Virus record (IMG/VR): IMGVR_UViG_3300001528_000208
Coordinates: 32,001 to 96,000 of that record
Direction: 5' to 3' (one strand)
DNA from: a virus
Lineage: Duplodnaviria > Caudoviricetes
DNA: 64,000 nt
Of this stretch, positions 3,001 through 50,293 are shown one piece after another. The number at the start of each line of letters is the position of its first letter. Positions within the stretch are counted from its first letter, which is position 1. The translations under genes were made by a program, and so were the position numbers. Below the pieces are notes generated by a model. That model was not told where the DNA came from and did not search any database. It was given only the letters and a program-made list of their open reading frames with translations.

Positions 3001-3143
3001 TCAGCGGCAACAATTCTGTTGCGAACGACAGCCATGACGTCTACTTTAACGGCAATCCGCTTGGCGGAATGACGCGTGCCGATTCCGTTGCGCTGACTTC
3101 GATTCTGCGCAGATATATTCCGATTAGTGGAGGTGGAAGATAA
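3..3143 (+). CDS. Tape-measure-like tail protein, 5'-truncated by the window edge
   Basis: Frame is open from position 3. Long Ala/Glu/Lys helical region, Gly/Ser-rich C-terminal part, and a YDSGG motif near the end; lies directly upstream of tail genes. Confidence 0.7.
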   Translation, partial: PAIFKLIQAAKALGIPLTELIRYLLNAASAGEELSKSVSLESPAAQITKFKDKVKSVVAAEEELAETGYISADAAEALAEAYTDDVYDAMEWTSKGYKVSKEALEDLIKAQRIEYELALNDAQNAANKIVNANIDEADSYNKKTQAILNAIKAKKEDIYTSILAGERGFEGWDQLALLRMLQDIEDEVATLQSNLDNFDKTVAYLRKTSTSKKSNAETAYEREIRLLEHELYLSEQLADLYKGDNDEANYRAEVNKQMEIYIKLMDAAHAEAERLRKLGYAETSEEIQNLQQAWWGYYNARRDLATGLADWEKQTTEDALNDVKDAINDLLDEAEDRLNDKLKSLEAKIDKNEAIKKLHEVFFGILNDVADGMHEIDKELEASLSSADYLDEQLRQAMFNEDDYKKMSSELNRIADESRTLFKDYLNQLEMLTEDEVYKADYITSEFERQYKYKELEYDIAQKELDLAKAQTKLQNTLMNRNVRMYKNGQWIWTADYSAVQEAKKEVRDAEYEYRDAEIKLKQQEILDKYAKLIDGLNLQKDAAQEEFDRLKDYWEKVQKQLTTEESAMQRLLKAINGTDIPQFREIINSVGKGLIDLINGLGTGSVYNPAGGAGGWSYGAGGTMVSGSGYVSGSSGGKNTIGAIGGGGTSGSLVPAYSGGQPHYSGSYGDDYVAPRTDGWQPGETLPGTSGNAPAGTEYDKWVLANGEPPNLTYKDTGVYAKGTSPSIKGADMSRDSKWAGQTVEKNGYVISYDELGYARSAINVRAGSRNENLANKYPRVDADGNIMYSKSGMWSSNTGRGYYYSTTDTADDTIYWDESNPNYVGGTPSSDSNQRRYLENLVKTGNYGQREWAKAELAKMGTSSGGSSSSSSSGGGGGSSSSSSSSSKGSSSSSSSDSGKSNQQRYLESLVESGNYGQKEWAKDQLNKGLYDSGGILDGVGGIKATMKDETIFGPELSSKLLSPQKSKEFLNSATALTKILDNSSALSSMLNRFAGLVSGNNSVANDSHDVYFNGNPLGGMTRADSVALTSILRRYIPISGGGR

Positions 3144-8562: not shown

Positions 8563-8786
8563 CGATAGTATTGGGTTAATCAAAAACTTCTTGAAAGTTT
8601 TACGACCCTTATTAAAGGAGAAGCATTTCCCGTGAAGGTGTATTCCTTCCAAAACAACCCCGCGATACTGTTGCACGGACGCTTCTTGCATGGTCGAAAG
8701 GCAAATTCGATTTCATGTGTAACAGTTATGCAAGTAATCTATGCGGGATTGGTTATACCAAGTCTTGTACACGGGGTATTTTATTT

Positions 8787-9956
8787 ATGAATAGTGCGCA
8801 AAGACACGAATTTCGATATTATAGGCGTAAAGAAAAGCGTCTTTCGAAAAAGATTAAACGATGCGAAGCTATCGGTGGAATAGATGGTGTATTTACATTT
8901 GGCGATTTATATAAATGCGGCAAAGCGTGCTGTAATGGCGTTCGGTGGAAGCATAGTGTGCAAAATTTCGAAATGCACTTGTTTTCAACTACGGTTAAAT
9001 CGTTGGCTGACGTAAAGAACGATAAATGGGAAAGCAACGAATATTTCAGATTTGTTTTAACGGAACGTGGTAAAACACGCGATATTGATGCGCCCAAAAT
9101 TGTTGACAGGCAAATCCATAAAGCTATTACGCGAAACATTCTTTTGCCGTTATATACACCAATGATGATTTACAATAATGGGGCAAGTCAAAAAGGAAAG
9201 GGATTCCACTTTAGCTCAAATGAACTGAAGAAAGATTTGCGTGAACATTTTAGGAAGTATGGTCGTGAAGGTTGGATACTTCTAATTGATTTCAAGAAAT
9301 TTTTTCCAAACGCAAAACACGCAAATATATACAATAATCATGAAGAATTAATTTTTGATGAAAGATTGCGTAGATTGTGTGATTATGTTGTTGGATTTAA
9401 CAATAATTCTGGATTTGGTATGCCGCTTGGCGTAGAACCAAGTCAAGCGGAAATGATTTTCTTCCCATGGAAACTTGATTGCTATTTAACGTGCCAATGT
9501 GGATTTAGTGGATGCGGTCACTATATGGATGACTATTATATTATAATACCGCCAACGATGAATCCGCATGATGTTCGTGCGAAAGTATTATCTTTTGCCG
9601 AATCGCTTGGAATAAGAGTAAATCGCGATAAATCATACTTCGTTAAACTTACAAAATCGTTCCGATATTGTAAAATACGATATCGACTTACGGATACTGG
9701 TGCCGTTAAAACACTTGGTAGTAGACCTGCTTATAGGCGAGCTGCAAGGAAAATTCGTGCATTTAAACGCATGGTGGACGAAGGCAAAATGAAATATGAG
9801 GATGTCTACTGTTCTATGAATTCTATAATATCGTATTTCGATAATTTCGACGACAATAACCGTTCTTTTAGATTGAAACGATTGTTTGTTAAAACGTTTG
9901 GATTTAAATATGACGACCTAATGACATTTAGAAGGAGGGATTTCTATAATGTATAA
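8787..9956 (+). CDS. DGR reverse transcriptase (alternative start 8715)
   Basis: DFKKFF, GVEPSQ (DGR-type SQ) and YMDD motifs; adjacent to the TR and avd. Confidence 0.95.
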   Translation: MNSAQRHEFRYYRRKEKRLSKKIKRCEAIGGIDGVFTFGDLYKCGKACCNGVRWKHSVQNFEMHLFSTTVKSLADVKNDKWESNEYFRFVLTERGKTRDIDAPKIVDRQIHKAITRNILLPLYTPMMIYNNGASQKGKGFHFSSNELKKDLREHFRKYGREGWILLIDFKKFFPNAKHANIYNNHEELIFDERLRRLCDYVVGFNNNSGFGMPLGVEPSQAEMIFFPWKLDCYLTCQCGFSGCGHYMDDYYIIIPPTMNPHDVRAKVLSFAESLGIRVNRDKSYFVKLTKSFRYCKIRYRLTDTGAVKTLGSRPAYRRAARKIRAFKRMVDEGKMKYEDVYCSMNSIISYFDNFDDNNRSFRLKRLFVKTFGFKYDDLMTFRRRDFYNV

Positions 9957-21698: not shown

Positions 21699-24026
21699 TT
21701 GAATATTAGCATCAATCTGGACAAAGATTTTAGCGAAAAATTTAATGAACTGCGTGAAAAATATGGCGATGAAATTGCAAAGCTGAATGGATTTTCCGAC
21801 GAACAGCTTAGTTATACAGACTTCATTGATAACTTTGTTGATAAAAATACGGTGGCAGACGCCAGTATTGACGGCAATGCCAATGTTGGTGCAAAAGATA
21901 TTTGTTCGCTTGATAGCGAAATGAATAAGCCACATAGCAAGTTGCTGTCCTTCAACAAGGTCTATTACGAAATGAAGAAAAAGTATGGCAAGGATATTGC
22001 TGATAGATGGTTAGAATACGAGTGGATCGGAAAATTTTACGCTCACGATTCCCCAAGTTTGTCGCAGAAAAGTTATTGTTTTGCGTATGACCTTGAAGGT
22101 TTGGTAAGTAAGGGGCTATATTTTGTTCCTAATTTCAATGGTCAGCCGCCTAAGCATCTTGTAACATACACTGATTTCGTTGGTGAATTTGTTTCTTATG
22201 CAAGCAATCGTTCTTCTGGCGCTTGTGGACTTCCCAGCTTCCTTGTATATTCGTTCTACTTCTGGAAGAAAGACGTAAAAGATGGCTACTATACTGGTAC
22301 GCCTGAAAGATATCGCGACCAAGAGTTCCAAAGAATCACCTATAAGCTGAACCAGCCGTATTTGCGTGTTAATCAAAGCGCGTTTACAAACTTTTCTATT
22401 TTTGATAGACCGTATTTCGAATCGCTTTTTGGATACAAAACATTTCCTGATGGTGAATTCATGATTGACTATATTGATGAATTTATGGAATATCAGAAGG
22501 CATTTATGGAAGTTGTGTCAAAAATTCGCGAACAGAATATGATGACTTTCCCGGTGCTTTCATTTTGTCTTCTTCGTAAGAATGGAAAGTTTGTAGACGA
22601 AGATTTTGCGCGCTGGTGCTGTAAACACAACATGAAGTGGGCGGATTCCAACTTTTTCGTAAGCGAAGATGTCACATCCCTTTCAAACTGTTGTTTTAGC
22701 GGCAACACAATGTTTATGACGACTGATGGCATCAGAAGATTTGATTCTTTTAAAGACGGCGATTCCATTGTCGTTCCGTGCATCAATGGTTCCAACAATA
22801 ATGCAGTTGTCCATACTTATGGCGAACAAAGACTATTCCGCATCAAACTTTGCCGTAATGGAAAGCATAGAGATGTATTGACCACCAGAAATCACAGGTG
22901 GATTCTTGACGGAAATACGGAAACAAACTATCTTTCTGTTGGCGATGTGTTAGTTAAATCTGCGCATGATACAGATGATGGGAATTGGTCTGTTGTTGAT
23001 ATTGAAGATACTGGAATTGTAGAAACTGTTTGGTGTCTTGATGTCGAAAATGAACACAATTTCATTCTTGCGGACAACATTCCTTGTGGGAACTGCCGTC
23101 TTGTTTCTGATGTAAAGAATTTGGGCTATTTCAATTCTATTGGCGGGACCGCGCTTGAAGTCGGTTCTGTCAAGGTAAACACCATCAATCTTGCAAGAAT
23201 CGCCTATGAAACGAAATCTAAAGAAGATTATCTAAAGCAGCTTTCTGATGAAGTTGTTCTTTGCTTGCAGATGCTTGATGTGGTGCGCCACATTATCACG
23301 CGCAATATCGAAAAAGGACTTCTGCCGAATTATTCTTATGGTCTTATGCACATGAAGTCTCAGTACAATACCATCGGCATCGTCGCCCTTTATGAAACCT
23401 TACAGGAGTTTGGTATGACGCACAAGGATAAACTTGGCTATGCGCATTACACCGACGAAGGTATCGAATTTGCAAAAGATATTCTTCATACCATTAACAA
23501 GGTAAAAGATGAATTTGTTGCCGACAAGGATTATTCTGCGAATCTGGAGCAGATTCCCGCCGAACGGGCGGCAAGCATTCTGATGCAGAAAGATATGGTT
23601 TTCTTCCCTGATGAAGCATACGACCTTCCGCTATATGGCAACCAGTGGATTCCGCTTGGTGTAAAGACCACGCTTGAAGAAAAGTGCAAGCTTAGTGCGA
23701 TTCTTGATAAGGCGTGTAACGGTGGCAGTATTGCGCACATCAACATTGATGCACCGTTCAATAACTTTGACACGGCGTGGAATATGCTGAACTATGTCGC
23801 CGACAGTGGCGTCCCTTATTTCGCGTTCTGCACCAGAATTTCTGCCTGTGAAGAAAATCACGGATTCTATGGCGACAAGTGTCCTATTTGTGGCAAGCCG
23901 AAGGTTACGACTTATCAGCGCGTGGTTGGTTTCTTAACACCTGAAAAGACATATTCTAAGGAACGCAAGGCTGAATTTAAGATGCGCGACTGGTTTGACC
24001 TGAACGCAATCTGTGATACATTATGA
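21699..24026 (+). CDS. nrdD: Anaerobic (class III) ribonucleotide reductase containing a mini-intein
   Basis: YC, TFPV, SNC/CRL, EQIPAE, C-terminal Zn site and the RVVGF glycyl-radical loop. Confidence 0.92.
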   Translation: MNISINLDKDFSEKFNELREKYGDEIAKLNGFSDEQLSYTDFIDNFVDKNTVADASIDGNANVGAKDICSLDSEMNKPHSKLLSFNKVYYEMKKKYGKDIADRWLEYEWIGKFYAHDSPSLSQKSYCFAYDLEGLVSKGLYFVPNFNGQPPKHLVTYTDFVGEFVSYASNRSSGACGLPSFLVYSFYFWKKDVKDGYYTGTPERYRDQEFQRITYKLNQPYLRVNQSAFTNFSIFDRPYFESLFGYKTFPDGEFMIDYIDEFMEYQKAFMEVVSKIREQNMMTFPVLSFCLLRKNGKFVDEDFARWCCKHNMKWADSNFFVSEDVTSLSNCCFSGNTMFMTTDGIRRFDSFKDGDSIVVPCINGSNNNAVVHTYGEQRLFRIKLCRNGKHRDVLTTRNHRWILDGNTETNYLSVGDVLVKSAHDTDDGNWSVVDIEDTGIVETVWCLDVENEHNFILADNIPCGNCRLVSDVKNLGYFNSIGGTALEVGSVKVNTINLARIAYETKSKEDYLKQLSDEVVLCLQMLDVVRHIITRNIEKGLLPNYSYGLMHMKSQYNTIGIVALYETLQEFGMTHKDKLGYAHYTDEGIEFAKDILHTINKVKDEFVADKDYSANLEQIPAERAASILMQKDMVFFPDEAYDLPLYGNQWIPLGVKTTLEEKCKLSAILDKACNGGSIAHINIDAPFNNFDTAWNMLNYVADSGVPYFAFCTRISACEENHGFYGDKCPICGKPKVTTYQRVVGFLTPEKTYSKERKAEFKMRDWFDLNAICDTL
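22692..23093 (+). mobile_element. Mini-intein (134 aa, no endonuclease)
   Basis: Starts CFSGNT, block B TRNHRW, block F VWCLDV..EHNF, ends GN before the +1 Cys. Removal restores SNCCRL. Confidence 0.9.
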
Positions 24027-40571: not shown

Positions 40572-41808
40572 GATATCCGCTATGCTTTAGCATAGTCGGC
40601 AAAAGAAAGAGAACTATATCGGAAAGGAAGTGATTGTAGATATGTTGATTGCCTACAAATATAGAATGTATCCAAATGAAGAACAGAAAACTTATTTTTC
40701 AAAATGCTTCGGTTGCGTCAGATTTATCTACAATCGTATGCTTGCTGATAAAATCGAGTTTTACAATAAGACAAAACAAAACCTGAAAAATACGCCAGCC
40801 CAATATAAAGACGAATTTCCATGGCTTCGAGAAGTCGATGCGCAAGCGTTGTCAAATGCTCAGATGAATTTACGGACAGCGTACAACAACTTCTTCAAGC
40901 GACCAGAAGTTGGGTTCCCAAAATTCAAAAGTAAGAAAACGCGATATGATTCTTATACTACAAATCAAGCCAATATCCGCGTGACAGAACGACACATTAA
41001 CCTTCCGAAAATTGGACTTGTCAGGATTAAGAAACACAGGAATTTTTTTGGAACAATCAAACACGCTACCATTACAAGAACGCCATCGGGAAAATATTAT
41101 GTTTCGGTTCTTGTTGAACAAGAAGATATTCCAAAGAAAATTCCATGTGATTCTGAACTTGGAATAGATTTGGGAATCAAGGGGTTCGCAACCACTTCTG
41201 ATGGCAAAGTGATTGAAAATCCGAAATACTTGAAAAAATCAGAAAAGAAACTGCGGAAGTTGCAGAAAGACTTGTCTCGTTGTAAAAAAGGAAGTAAAAA
41301 TCGAGATAAATGTAGAATTAAAGTTGCACGTTGTCACGAGAAAATAACGAATCAACGCAAGGACTTTCTAAACAAACTTTCAAAAAGACTGATTGATGAA
41401 AACCAAGTCATATGTCTGGAAACATTGAAAGTTAAGAATATGATGAAAAATCATAAACTCGCTAAGTCTATTGCTGATGTATCATGGTCAGAATTTGTAC
41501 GACAACTGGAATACAAAGCAAACTGGTACGGAAGAGAAATTGTGAAAATTGATTCGTGGTATCCAAGTTCGCAGTTGTGTAGTAAATGCGGATACAAAAA
41601 TACAGAAATAAAGGATTTGTCTGTTAGAGAATGGGTGTGTCCGCAATGTGGAACTGTTCACGATAGAGACATTAACGCTGCAATAAATATTCTTAATGAA
41701 GGATTGAGAATAAGAACCGTAGGAACTACGGGGATAGCCTAAGTAAACTTGTCTCGTTAGAGATATTGATTAGGAAGCACCGGTGCTTTATCATCGTGTG
41801 TAGTTCAC
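40572..41808 (+). mobile_element. IS200/IS605-family (IS1341-like, tnpB-only) element; boundaries approximate
   Basis: Subterminal hairpins share a TGCTTTA core (40580-40595, 41781-41796). The right end reads GTAGTTCAC, and an omega-RNA-like 3' region overlaps the tnpB end. Confidence 0.7.
40630..41742 (+). CDS. tnpB: TnpB RNA-guided nuclease
   Basis: [29 protein letters not shown] and [11 protein letters not shown] motifs. Confidence 0.95.
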
Positions 41809-44946: not shown

Positions 44947-45160
44947 GTGGCTTGATAGGAAGGGCGACCGCACGTTCGTAGGTAATGCTGATAACGTAGA
45001 CCAAGCGTTGGACATGATTGGCGACTGGTGTAAAGAACACGATTTTCAGTCGTTCTATGTGCGGTGGTGCGAATTTTCAGACCATTATTGGTTCGATTAC
45101 GGATCGCACACCTGCTTCTTTGAACTTGCAAAAGGTCTTGACAAAGCGCAAGTTGTGTGA
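44936..45160 (+). CDS. Hypothetical protein, C-terminus AQVV
   Basis: DYGSHT.FF motif. Confidence 0.65.
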   Translation: MRLEWLDRKGDRTFVGNADNVDQALDMIGDWCKEHDFQSFYVRWCEFSDHYWFDYGSHTCFFELAKGLDKAQVV

Positions 45161-45166
45161 TATTAT
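45138..45166 (+). promoter_or_regulatory. SigA-type promoter of ncRNA-1
   Basis: TTGACA-17-TGATATTAT. Confidence 0.8.
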
Positions 45167-45180
45167 AATGTCATAGCACA

Positions 45181-45452
45181 AATCGGCGTGTGTTTGGTGG
45201 AATAGCTGGTGACACCTAAAATAACCCAGCGACCAGCCTGAAAGGGCATTGACACTGGCGCGTTCCAAGGGGCGCGTTAAGCCAAAACCGGTATTTTGTG
45301 GCAACAAACAAGGGTTTCCTCCGGTATATAAGGTGGTGCGAAATCATCCCATCTAAAATTACTATACTGATGGGCATTGTTGCGAACGGCAATAGCGGAT
45401 ACGGATGTTTGATGGGGCGTCAAGCCGTATAGCGATTAAACCCCTGCCGATT
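45181..45452 (+). ncRNA. Putative structured ncRNA-1 (~275 nt), family not recognised
   Basis: Own promoter; terminal helix AATCGGCG../..TGCCGATT; several internal hairpins; module shared with ncRNA-2. Confidence 0.7.
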
Positions 45453-45472
45453 CTATTTTTTAGGTGGTCAAT

Positions 45473-45763
45473 ATGGCTAAGAAATTTTTTGCATCATTCG
45501 AATCAGTTCCAAACGATTTCGCCGCAGCTAAACTGCGCCTTGGCGAATTTGGTGTGATTCGCGCCAATGGTAATCGCTACAACGTCCTGCCCGTTAAGGA
45601 CAAGACGCCGCTGGATGTTGGCGACAGCGTGTTTACCCGCGCTGGTGGCAATTATGGCATCTACGATATTATTGCGATTGACGACCGCTGGTTTTCTGTT
45701 GGCAAAGGCGACAAGAAAAAGGGTCGCGTTGTGCGTGCTGATATCTATGGGAAGGTGGTCTAA
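45473..45763 (+). CDS. Hypothetical protein, C-terminus GKVV
   Basis: RBS AGGTGG. Confidence 0.65.
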   Translation: MAKKFFASFESVPNDFAAAKLRLGEFGVIRANGNRYNVLPVKDKTPLDVGDSVFTRAGGNYGIYDIIAIDDRWFSVGKGDKKKGRVVRADIYGKVV

Positions 45764-49042: not shown

Positions 49043-49050
49043 AATGGCAA

Positions 49051-49500
49051 CGGTTGAAACGTAGGCTTAGAAGCAGCCATCGTCTAAGGAGTTTATCGCG
49101 GGGCGAGTCTTGACGGTCTTTGTGCCGTGGGAAGTATCTGCTATTGCAATCATATAGAATGATATTTCTTGACCGCCTATGATTGCCGTGGATAATTTGG
49201 CGTAGTAGCACATCAACCGCATGGTGGAATGGCGGGTGACACCTAAAATAACCTCGCCACCATATCCCACAAGTTCCGCAATCGGGGCAGAGTGTAAAAT
49301 GCGAAAGCACACTTGGAAGGAAAGCCGTGGGATTAACAGCGCCCATTGAAATCCGTGCGAATATTATTAACATGGTAGAATCGCCTATCTGCAACGCCGC
49401 CACAACAACGTGGATGGCTATGCGTTAGGGCTACCGGCTAAACCGTCATTTCAAGACGGTAAGGATTAGCTGTTGCGAACCGCGAAAGTGGGATAGCGGG
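49051..49500 (+). ncRNA. Putative structured ncRNA-2 (~450 nt) with a 23S rRNA GTPase-centre-like domain
   Basis: GTAGGCTTAGAAGCAGCCATCGTCTAAGGAGT...GGCGTAGTAGCACA closed by CGGTTGA/TCAACCG. Lies between two promoters with no credible ORF. Confidence 0.75.
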
Positions 49501-49506
49501 AAGCAC

Positions 49507-49628: not shown

Positions 49629-49780
49629 GATTGTGAAATTCAAGCGGCGAAAGCCAAGCCACCGTTACAGCCGGTATTGACAAAATCCAAAATGTGTGCT
49701 ATATTATTATCATGGTGTGAACAGGTTGGTCGCCTGTGAACATAAATTCAAAATTTTGAAAGTAAGAAAGGAAAAAGACT

Positions 49781-50217: not shown

Positions 50218-50293
50218 GGCGCACTCGTCTAAAGTTAGGATGCCGCCTTCTCACGGCGGAGATAGAAGTTGCAATTCCTTCTGTGCGTCACCA
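50218..50293 (+). tRNA. tRNA-Glu(CTC), atypical T-arm
   Basis: Acceptor GGCGCAC/GTGCGTC, anticodon arm CCGCC-TTCTCAC-GGCGG, encoded CCA, terminator immediately downstream. Confidence 0.82.

Follow-up and report, generated by a model that had tools for sequence, protein, structure and literature searches.

A conserved, complex-folded RNA of two modules occupies a tRNA slot in a clade of uncultured phages

What does a near-consensus phage promoter transcribe when it is followed by about 310 nucleotides (nt) without a credible gene? The question arises in a 64,000-nt stretch of viral DNA, called the window below, taken from the record of an uncultured virus (104.8 kb, 98% complete), of which it comprises bases 32001 to 96000. 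The DnaE protein of this virus is closest to the DnaE of Bacillota phages. The ORF-free stretch runs from the stop of an 83-amino-acid (aa) open reading frame (ORF; 45160) to the ATG of a 96-aa ORF (45473), with only short ORFs inside. A promoter of the TTGACA/TATTAT type had been proposed for it on first reading, and such a promoter is present in the sequence and conserved in the homologues introduced below. It agrees with the consensus at 11 of 12 positions; nine aligned homologues share both hexamers (−35 and −10) and the TG without change, and differ in the spacer at two positions. From its location, transcription should start near 45173 to 45175.

45138 to 45166, plus strand: promoter, with TTGACA at 45138 to 45143, a 17-nt spacer, and TATTAT at 45161 to 45166, TG just upstream
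45462 to 45475, plus strand: Shine-Dalgarno sequence AGGTGG and ATG of the next gene (96 aa), as read in the sequence

The genome holds 23 promoters of this type, and a long ORF-free stretch follows only those at 45138 and 49014. Among the 21 others (the 23 less the 45138 promoter and the one ahead of a second unit at 49046 to 49506), wherever the 25 printed downstream bases reach a Shine-Dalgarno sequence, the leader is mostly ~15 to 30 nt long, which makes the ~310-nt stretch exceptional for this genome. The homologues differ from one another by 1- and 2-nt indels, which argues against coding. The hexamer TGCGAA, found at 45337, 45381, 49300, 49356, and 49474, is ~12-fold enriched in the two noncoding units (5 copies in 0.75 kb versus 0.57 per kb genome-wide). 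No terminator was found between the stretch and the 96-aa gene, so a discrete RNA would need processing. The 96-aa protein gave no informative match in Pfam, PHROGs, or the protein atlas, nor did its small neighbors in Pfam or PHROGs.

Homologues were sought with an 18-mer query from a hairpin that the locus has in common with 49222 to 49262 in the second unit. This led to one related 108-kb virus in IMG/VR and eight metagenome contigs carrying true homologues. Relatives of the neighboring peptidase gene then gave more distant syntenic contigs, with part of the RNA, its core, in three lineages (L043/L044, L045, and L042; relatives are cited by L numbers where they must be told apart). The homologues total eight lineages, and as all of them belong to a single uncultured phage clade, the covariation described below rests on few independent events. 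Other searches yielded little. A scan of viral contigs with GCGTTAAGCCAAAACCG returned, besides the known relative, eight new loci with BLAST likeness to neither unit, and a gapped pattern of the core returned the same relative only. The 18-mer from the loop of the hairpin had ten matches in bacterial genomes, all attributable to chance, and a hairpin-like match to the 18-mer in a Dehalococcoidia metagenome-assembled genome was rejected as it lies inside a 142-aa ORF. Neither 50,697 phage records nor E. coli genomes gave anything by blastn; the latter database is too large for short matches, and likeness to rRNA was instead assessed by local comparison with rrlB. Rfam 15, scanned at the gathering thresholds and at E values up to 10 over the region and three homologue-bearing contigs, matched no family, including GOLLD, ROOL, RNase P, ribozymes, and IMES-2.

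On its own, the sequence folds hardly better than its shuffles (minimum-free-energy z-score of only −0.64), so that comparison among homologues was needed to settle whether the RNA is structured. A fold of several helices (P1a/P1b, P2, P3, P4/P4a, P5, P6, and P7/P7b, together 60 pairs) was evaluated on a seven-sequence alignment, A4, against controls in which the 3' partners were slid by 1 to 3 columns. In the alignment, 95% of cells are paired, versus 34 to 49% in the slid versions (30 to 51% over all slid controls), and 14 pairs have changed on both sides, versus 0 to 4. Of 500 shuffles, none equals the alignment in covariation score, in share of paired cells, or in number of doubly changed cells, and one reaches 14 pairs. 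When the three further lineages are included, P2, P3, P7, and P7b are 99% paired with 8 pairs doubly changed, again beyond all 500 shuffles. The promoter, the lack of a credible ORF, and the covarying fold together support a promoter-driven, noncoding, structured RNA, as the original prediction had it, with a fold other than the one it proposed. The elements of the supported fold are as follows.

45175 to 45194, plus strand: optional 5' leader arm, outside the conserved fold
45195 to 45235, plus strand: P1 hairpin, with P1a (45195 to 45198 with 45232 to 45235), a 5' bulge GGAAUA, P1b (45205 to 45209 with 45226 to 45230), a 16-nt loop, and an ACCA end
45236 to 45247, plus strand: P2, a 4-bp hairpin with a GAAA tetraloop; closing pair G-C, A-U, or G-U among homologues, and stem GCGC/GCGC in L043
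45256 to 45279, plus strand: P3, a 10-bp hairpin with a variable tetraloop; 10 of 10 pairs in all 10 sequences
45287 to 45325, plus strand: P4 (45287 to 45291 with 45321 to 45325) around P4a (45294 to 45299 with 45308 to 45313); G-C to A-U change in P4 and U-A to C-G change in P4a
45348 to 45374, plus strand: P5, a 6-bp hairpin with a 15-nt loop; an A-U/G-U/G-C series among homologues, and CCUGAC/GUCGGG, pairing 6 of 6, in L043
45375 to 45386, plus strand: joining segment J5/6, with GUUGC (45379 to 45383) invariant in ten aligned sequences
45387 to 45449, plus strand: 3' domain with the predicted pseudoknot, comprising P6 (45387 to 45391 with 45445 to 45449), P7 (45399 to 45404 with 45425 to 45430), and P7b (45408 to 45412 with 45420 to 45424)
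45414 to 45417 with 45441 to 45444, plus strand: predicted pseudoknot, GGGG of the loop UGGGGCG (45413 to 45419) with CCCC

As judged from these alignments, the locus specifies a conserved, complex-folded RNA of ~265 to 280 nt that is built of two modules. The first consists of the 5' hairpins, namely P1, ending in ACCA, and the small P2 with its GAAA loop; the module also heads the unit at 49046 to 49506. The second is a core of ~200 nt made up of P3, P4/P4a, P5, and the 3' domain, in which P6 encloses P7/P7b. Fold, conservation, modularity, and position in a tRNA slot are all demonstrated by sequence comparison.

Within the first module, the second copy of P1 (49222 to 49262) is 88% identical with compensatory changes in the stem, and P1b covaries among the homologues as well. 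The loop is near-invariant, and the two changes that it shows in two relatives are such that wobble pairing would preserve a possible GGU/RCY mini-stem. P1a is not kept in two relatives; even so, ACCA is kept in every copy of P1. In the core, four G-U pairs of P3 stay G-U in 9 to 10 of the 10 sequences, and compensatory changes occur in L045 and L042. The P4a strands read ACACGC/GCGUGU in L045 and ACACGG/CCGUGU in L042, and the P4a loop GGCAAC (45300 to 45305) recurs in every lineage (L042 and L045 read by eye in both respects). The GCAAC of this loop is complementary to the GUUGC of J5/6, both sides being invariant across the RNA homologues, and the two are candidates for a long-range pairing. 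In the second unit of L019, both GCAAC/GUUGC motifs are changed; one keeps a wobble and the other becomes a C-A mismatch.

In the 3' domain, P6 occurs in five unrelated but always complementary versions (CGGCA/UGCCG, AUGGUUG/CAACCAU, AUUUGUG/CACAAAU, AACAGUC/GACUGUU, and GGCAAC/GUUGUC), and P7 pairs 6 of 6 in 10 sequences, in five sequence versions with 4 covarying pairs. The P7b apical loop and the stretch that follows a conserved AAACC in J7/6 vary together, as GGGG/CCCC, CGGGG/CCCCG, UCGGG/CCCGA, GCGGU/ACCGC, and UCGGUU/AACCGA. Cognate loops and strands form 5.6 bp on average and noncognate ones 4.1 bp. Taken singly, the complementarity is weak (shuffle fractions of 0.7, 0.25, and 0.04); taken together, complements that recur at a fixed position indicate an H-type pseudoknot. 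Most likely, then, the apical loop of P7b pairs with the C-rich stretch before the P6 3' strand in a pseudoknot stacked on P6. The last 82 nt of the RNA (~45375 to 45457) are 100% identical to those of L004, while the RNA upstream is ~13% different, so that the 3' domain behaves as a swappable cassette.

This fold bears on two further pairings that had been proposed. The ends of the RNA were thought to pair, and 45181 to 45195 does match 45438 to 45452 at 13 of 15 positions (including one G-U), in a helix that the minimum-free-energy fold uses, but the helix is not conserved. Across the homologues it is 48 to 69% paired with no compensatory change and a score below all 500 shuffles; its 5' arm is deleted in three homologues, its 3' arm is replaced in four others whose 5' arm is identical, and in the supported fold that 3' arm consists of the P6 3' strand and the pseudoknot strand. 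Internal hairpins with GCGAA or CGAA loops fare similarly. The CGAA hairpin at 45376 to 45393 can pair, but it shows only one-sided wobble changes and competes with the covarying P6; the GCGAA motif at 45338 falls in a junction. The 5' leader arm itself is absent in L004, L015, and L017 and identical in L009, L010, L011, L019, and L021. In the window it can form 7 Watson-Crick bp with the 3' strand of P6 (the 45445 to 45452 side; 16 of 5,000 shuffles), and in L009 it can form 9 bp with the 5' strand (0 of 5,000), while L011 and L019 have nothing comparable. This complementarity may reflect an alternative pairing or the recombination of cassettes.

The surroundings of the two modules point to tRNA. 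In L045 the core stands behind a tRNA-Met gene (3058 to 3133) and in L042 behind a tRNA-Ile gene (1892 to 1965), in both cases directly before P3, and both tRNAs end in an encoded ACCA ~6 nt ahead of P3. With a real tRNA in front of the core in two relatives, the P1-ACCA hairpin of the window type can be seen to occupy the tRNA's place. In L043, a noncanonical tRNA-like stretch ending in ACCACCA lies ahead of P2 (read by eye), P1 and P2 stand alone in L046, and the more distant relatives have tRNA clusters in the same region. In the window itself, neither ARAGORN nor Rfam (RF00005) finds a tRNA cloverleaf within 45170 to 45470.

We think it somewhat probable, given these arrangements, that the locus encodes a processed, stand-alone folded phage RNA associated with tRNA clusters, and we favor this reading over a cis-acting leader. 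Under it, the strong host-type promoter would drive a primary transcript, and the enzymes that process tRNA (RNase P and those that trim 3' ends) would act at the tRNA or at its hairpin-ACCA stand-in; their action and the compact fold would together leave a stable product. The product would work through its folded form, offering a scaffold or a decoy to some partner, protein or RNA, probably in connection with tRNA or translation, and would not be a mimic of the ribosomal P-loop.

Phage RNAs in such a setting have precedents. The T4 stable RNAs species 1 and 2 (rnaC and rnaD; RNAC and RNAD) are encoded in a tRNA cluster, measure ~120 to 140 nt, have a tRNA-like shape, and need tRNA-processing enzymes to form their ends; we know of no function for them. 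They resemble the present RNA in being phage-encoded, noncoding, structured, and placed among tRNA genes, a likeness of setting and not of sequence, and they differ in that the core here extends over ~200 nt as a series of hairpins with a pseudoknot domain and is not recognized by any tRNA model. GOLLD and ROOL are large, ornate RNAs of phages and prophages of Bacillota-type hosts, often found next to or around tRNA genes, and they too have no function known to us. The likeness, again of setting and not of sequence, extends to complex folds, GNRA loops, pseudoknots, and the tRNA-gene context; GOLLD and ROOL are 2 to 3 times larger, however, and their Rfam models give no match below E = 10 over the searched region.

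The closest competitor is a cis-acting leader of the early operon that begins at 45473. The pseudoknot domain would then be a riboswitch-like or protein-binding translational operator, or else the RNA would be a stabilizer or a put-like modifier of RNA polymerase. The RNA would be cotranscribed with the operon, given that no terminator intervenes; the 96-aa gene or a homologue comes directly after it in three lineages (the window, L019, and L042), the P6 3' strand lies 4 to 17 nt from the Shine-Dalgarno box in five lineages, and highly conserved junction nucleotides with an H-type pseudoknot are typical of aptamers. The preQ1-II and SAM-II riboswitches are H-type pseudoknot aptamers before a ribosome-binding site, and the 3' domain resembles them in a loop that pairs with a downstream strand beside the closing helix, in an A-rich joining strand, and in a position a few nucleotides before the Shine-Dalgarno sequence. 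Here, however, the pseudoknot does not include the Shine-Dalgarno sequence, the element is of much greater size, different genes follow in different lineages, and nothing implies a ligand. Several further observations make a leader rather unlikely. No conserved pairing hides the Shine-Dalgarno sequence, the candidate anti-Shine-Dalgarno motifs CCUCC (in P4) and CACCU (in the P1 loop) being unconserved, and there is no attenuator terminator. We also reject an anti-Shine-Dalgarno role for the P1 loop CACCUAAAA, since its 9-nt complement to 45458 to 45466, seen by eye in the window, is unconserved and P1 also stands before a tRNA. In most lineages other ORFs, including a TnpB-like one, lie between the RNA and the 96-aa gene. 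What follows the RNA directly may be the 96-aa gene, an ORF beginning MKRIKAF (L004, L015, L017, L009, and L010), one beginning MKFK (L043), or a TnpB-like gene, and the small downstream ORFs are of at least two unrelated kinds; this variation between lineages suggests that the RNA is independent of the next gene. A core behind tRNA genes, as in L042 and L045, would be unusual for a leader, and the sister unit at 49046 to 49506 precedes a tRNA.

Among leaders, the T-box riboswitch deserves separate mention. Together with the RNase P S-domain and the L1 stalk, it uses interdigitated T-loops as a platform for the tRNA elbow (PMC4810234). In layout, P1 is like the distal end of T-box Stem I in being a hairpin with a conserved 5' bulge and a conserved apical loop, and the Bacillota host range suggested by DnaE is where T-boxes live. 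The RNA is unlike a T-box in that neither the region nor the genome as a whole has a match to RF00230 at E values up to 10, and in that specifier loop, antiterminator, terminator, and conserved Shine-Dalgarno-sequestering pairing are all absent.

TnpB-like genes (OrfB_IS605/Cas12f-like) lie at 40630 to 41742 in the window, after 1520 in L011, where the copy lies directly behind the RNA, and at 2482 to 3630 in L042.

The second unit, at 49046 to 49506, is likewise promoter-driven and ORF-free, measures ~460 nt, and carries the P1 module at 49222 to 49262; a promoter and a tRNA-Glu gene follow it, with no ORF. Its first ~175 nt are missing from the homologues in L011 and L019, whose RNA begins at P1. 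We do not regard the two units as full paralogues, for outside P1 they share only a marginal local match (12 of 500 shuffles). A weak Rfam match to IMES-2 at 49146 to 49260 (17.5 bits, below the gathering score of 54.7) spans two adjacent hairpins with similar 14- to 18-nt loops, the second of which is P1; membership in IMES-2 was rejected because the score is sub-gathering, although the two-hairpin layout is alike. The positions 49061 to 49090 match E. coli 23S rRNA 1059 to 1088 at 26 of 30 nt (34 bits; 0 of 200 shuffles), the helix 43 (H43) hairpin of the GTPase-associated center, the uL11 and thiostrepton site. The H43-like stretch is conserved in L003 and L012, and in the four genomes in which both units can be read, the H43 copy and the heptaloop that resembles the ribosomal P-loop are present together or absent together. 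One might propose from this that the phage RNAs display ribosomal functional sites as variable "cargo" tips on a conserved scaffold and so act on host factors directed at the ribosome, as decoys or sponges. We consider the proposal quite improbable; if it were true, the targets could be defense nucleases, modification enzymes, or free ribosomal proteins. Literature searches on phage rRNA mimics and on IMES-2 found nothing relevant.

Two minor features lie near the second unit. A recurring noncoding element, GUGAAAUUCAAGCGG ... CCACCGUUAnAGCCGGU, occurs at 49633 to 49676 in the window, behind the tRNA-Glu gene, and at about 3096 to 3140 in L043 and about 2992 to 3050 in L045, in leaders ahead of the tRNA or tRNA-like element. 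A tRNA-like sequence lies at 50219 to 50289 in the window; its anticodon loop carries CUC (Glu), its T-loop reads UGCAAUU, and its CCA is encoded. Rfam scores it just above the cutoff for tRNA (29.8 bits), and ARAGORN misses it; L011 has a canonical tRNA-Glu(CUC) beside tRNA-Glu(UUC).

The ribosomal P-loop was also the starting point of the original prediction, which saw in the RNA a clamp for tRNA: a T-loop-like module would dock on the elbow, and the UGGGGCG loop would pair with the CCA end. The sequences behind this idea were correctly given. The 15-mer GTTTGATGGGGCGTC lies exactly at 45407 to 45421, where it forms a 5-bp stem with the loop UGGGGCG, and the sequence given for helix 80 (H80) of 23S rRNA is right, E. 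coli rrlB reading AGTTTGACTGGGGCGGTC and the 23S rRNA at H80 reading GUUUGACUGGGGCGGUC. Letter for letter, the window lineage shares with E. coli H80 the heptaloop and, in the stem, the adjacent GA/UC pairs. The RNA does sit in a tRNA slot, a GG core is kept in the loop of every lineage (GGGCG in three further ones), and P1 has candidate pentads that fit a loose T-loop consensus; one of them, UGACA, becomes UGACG in L011 and L019. The likeness to H80, however, does not exceed that of shuffled sequence: its alignment score of 11 to 13 is matched somewhere in rRNA by 150 of 150 dinucleotide shuffles, and the best BLAST match of the RNA to rRNA (16.8 bits) is equaled by 199 of 200. Nor is it conserved in relatives. 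The loop reads UGGGGCG in the window, CGGGGCG in L043 and L045, UCGGGCG in L042, GCGGUG in L011 and L019, and UCGGU in L009 and L010, so that it differs in five ways, each version matching the internal C-rich stretch of J7/6, and the L019 and L009 loops, without UGG, could not pair with NCCA. As the G-run of the loop covaries with an internal C-run, the loop Gs are probably occupied in the pseudoknot and not free for CCA. The G-run of the ribosomal P-loop, by comparison, is free to pair with C74 and C75 of tRNA. The end-to-end helix is unconserved and no T-box or tRNA model matches, and we hold the clamp to be very improbable. An eye-catching match to a ribosomal loop can thus be a by-product of an internal pseudoknot.

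A ribozyme that cuts near the 5' end of the core, and so releases the upstream tRNA or hairpin-ACCA with a free 3' end, is equally improbable. In its favor, an encoded CCA stands ~6 nt before the start of the core in L042 and L045, the architecture is pseudoknotted, and the RNA ligase encoded by relatives and the phosphoesterase encoded in the window are enzymes of a kind that can mend RNA ends. Against it, none of the known ribozyme models gives a match, the size of the core far exceeds that of the small self-cleavers known, and the spacing is not constant, since the window type has P2 and a junction separating ACCA from P3.

The reading as a processed, stand-alone RNA places the locus in an old puzzle. 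That phage tRNA clusters hold stable RNAs is long established, and to our knowledge their function has gone unexplained since the T4 era. To these, the locus adds a well-supported new fold with modular rules, in which a tRNA or a hairpin-ACCA forms the front, a conserved core follows, and a swappable pseudoknot domain forms the end. With its own consensus promoter, a cassette of ~330 nt, and defined compensatory mutants, the class is experimentally approachable. Should the core bind a component of translation or of tRNA repair, it would represent a new phage route to managing host translation or evading tRNA-directed defenses.

Elsewhere in the window, at 8571 to 9956, the gene for a 413-aa reverse transcriptase (RVT_1) shares its beginning with an overlapping RT-2 RNA (RF03077, 104.7 bits). 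The anaerobic ribonucleotide reductase gene nrdD (NrdD; 21699 to 24026) matches an intein splicing domain in mid-gene, weakly and below the threshold, which suggests an inserted intein.
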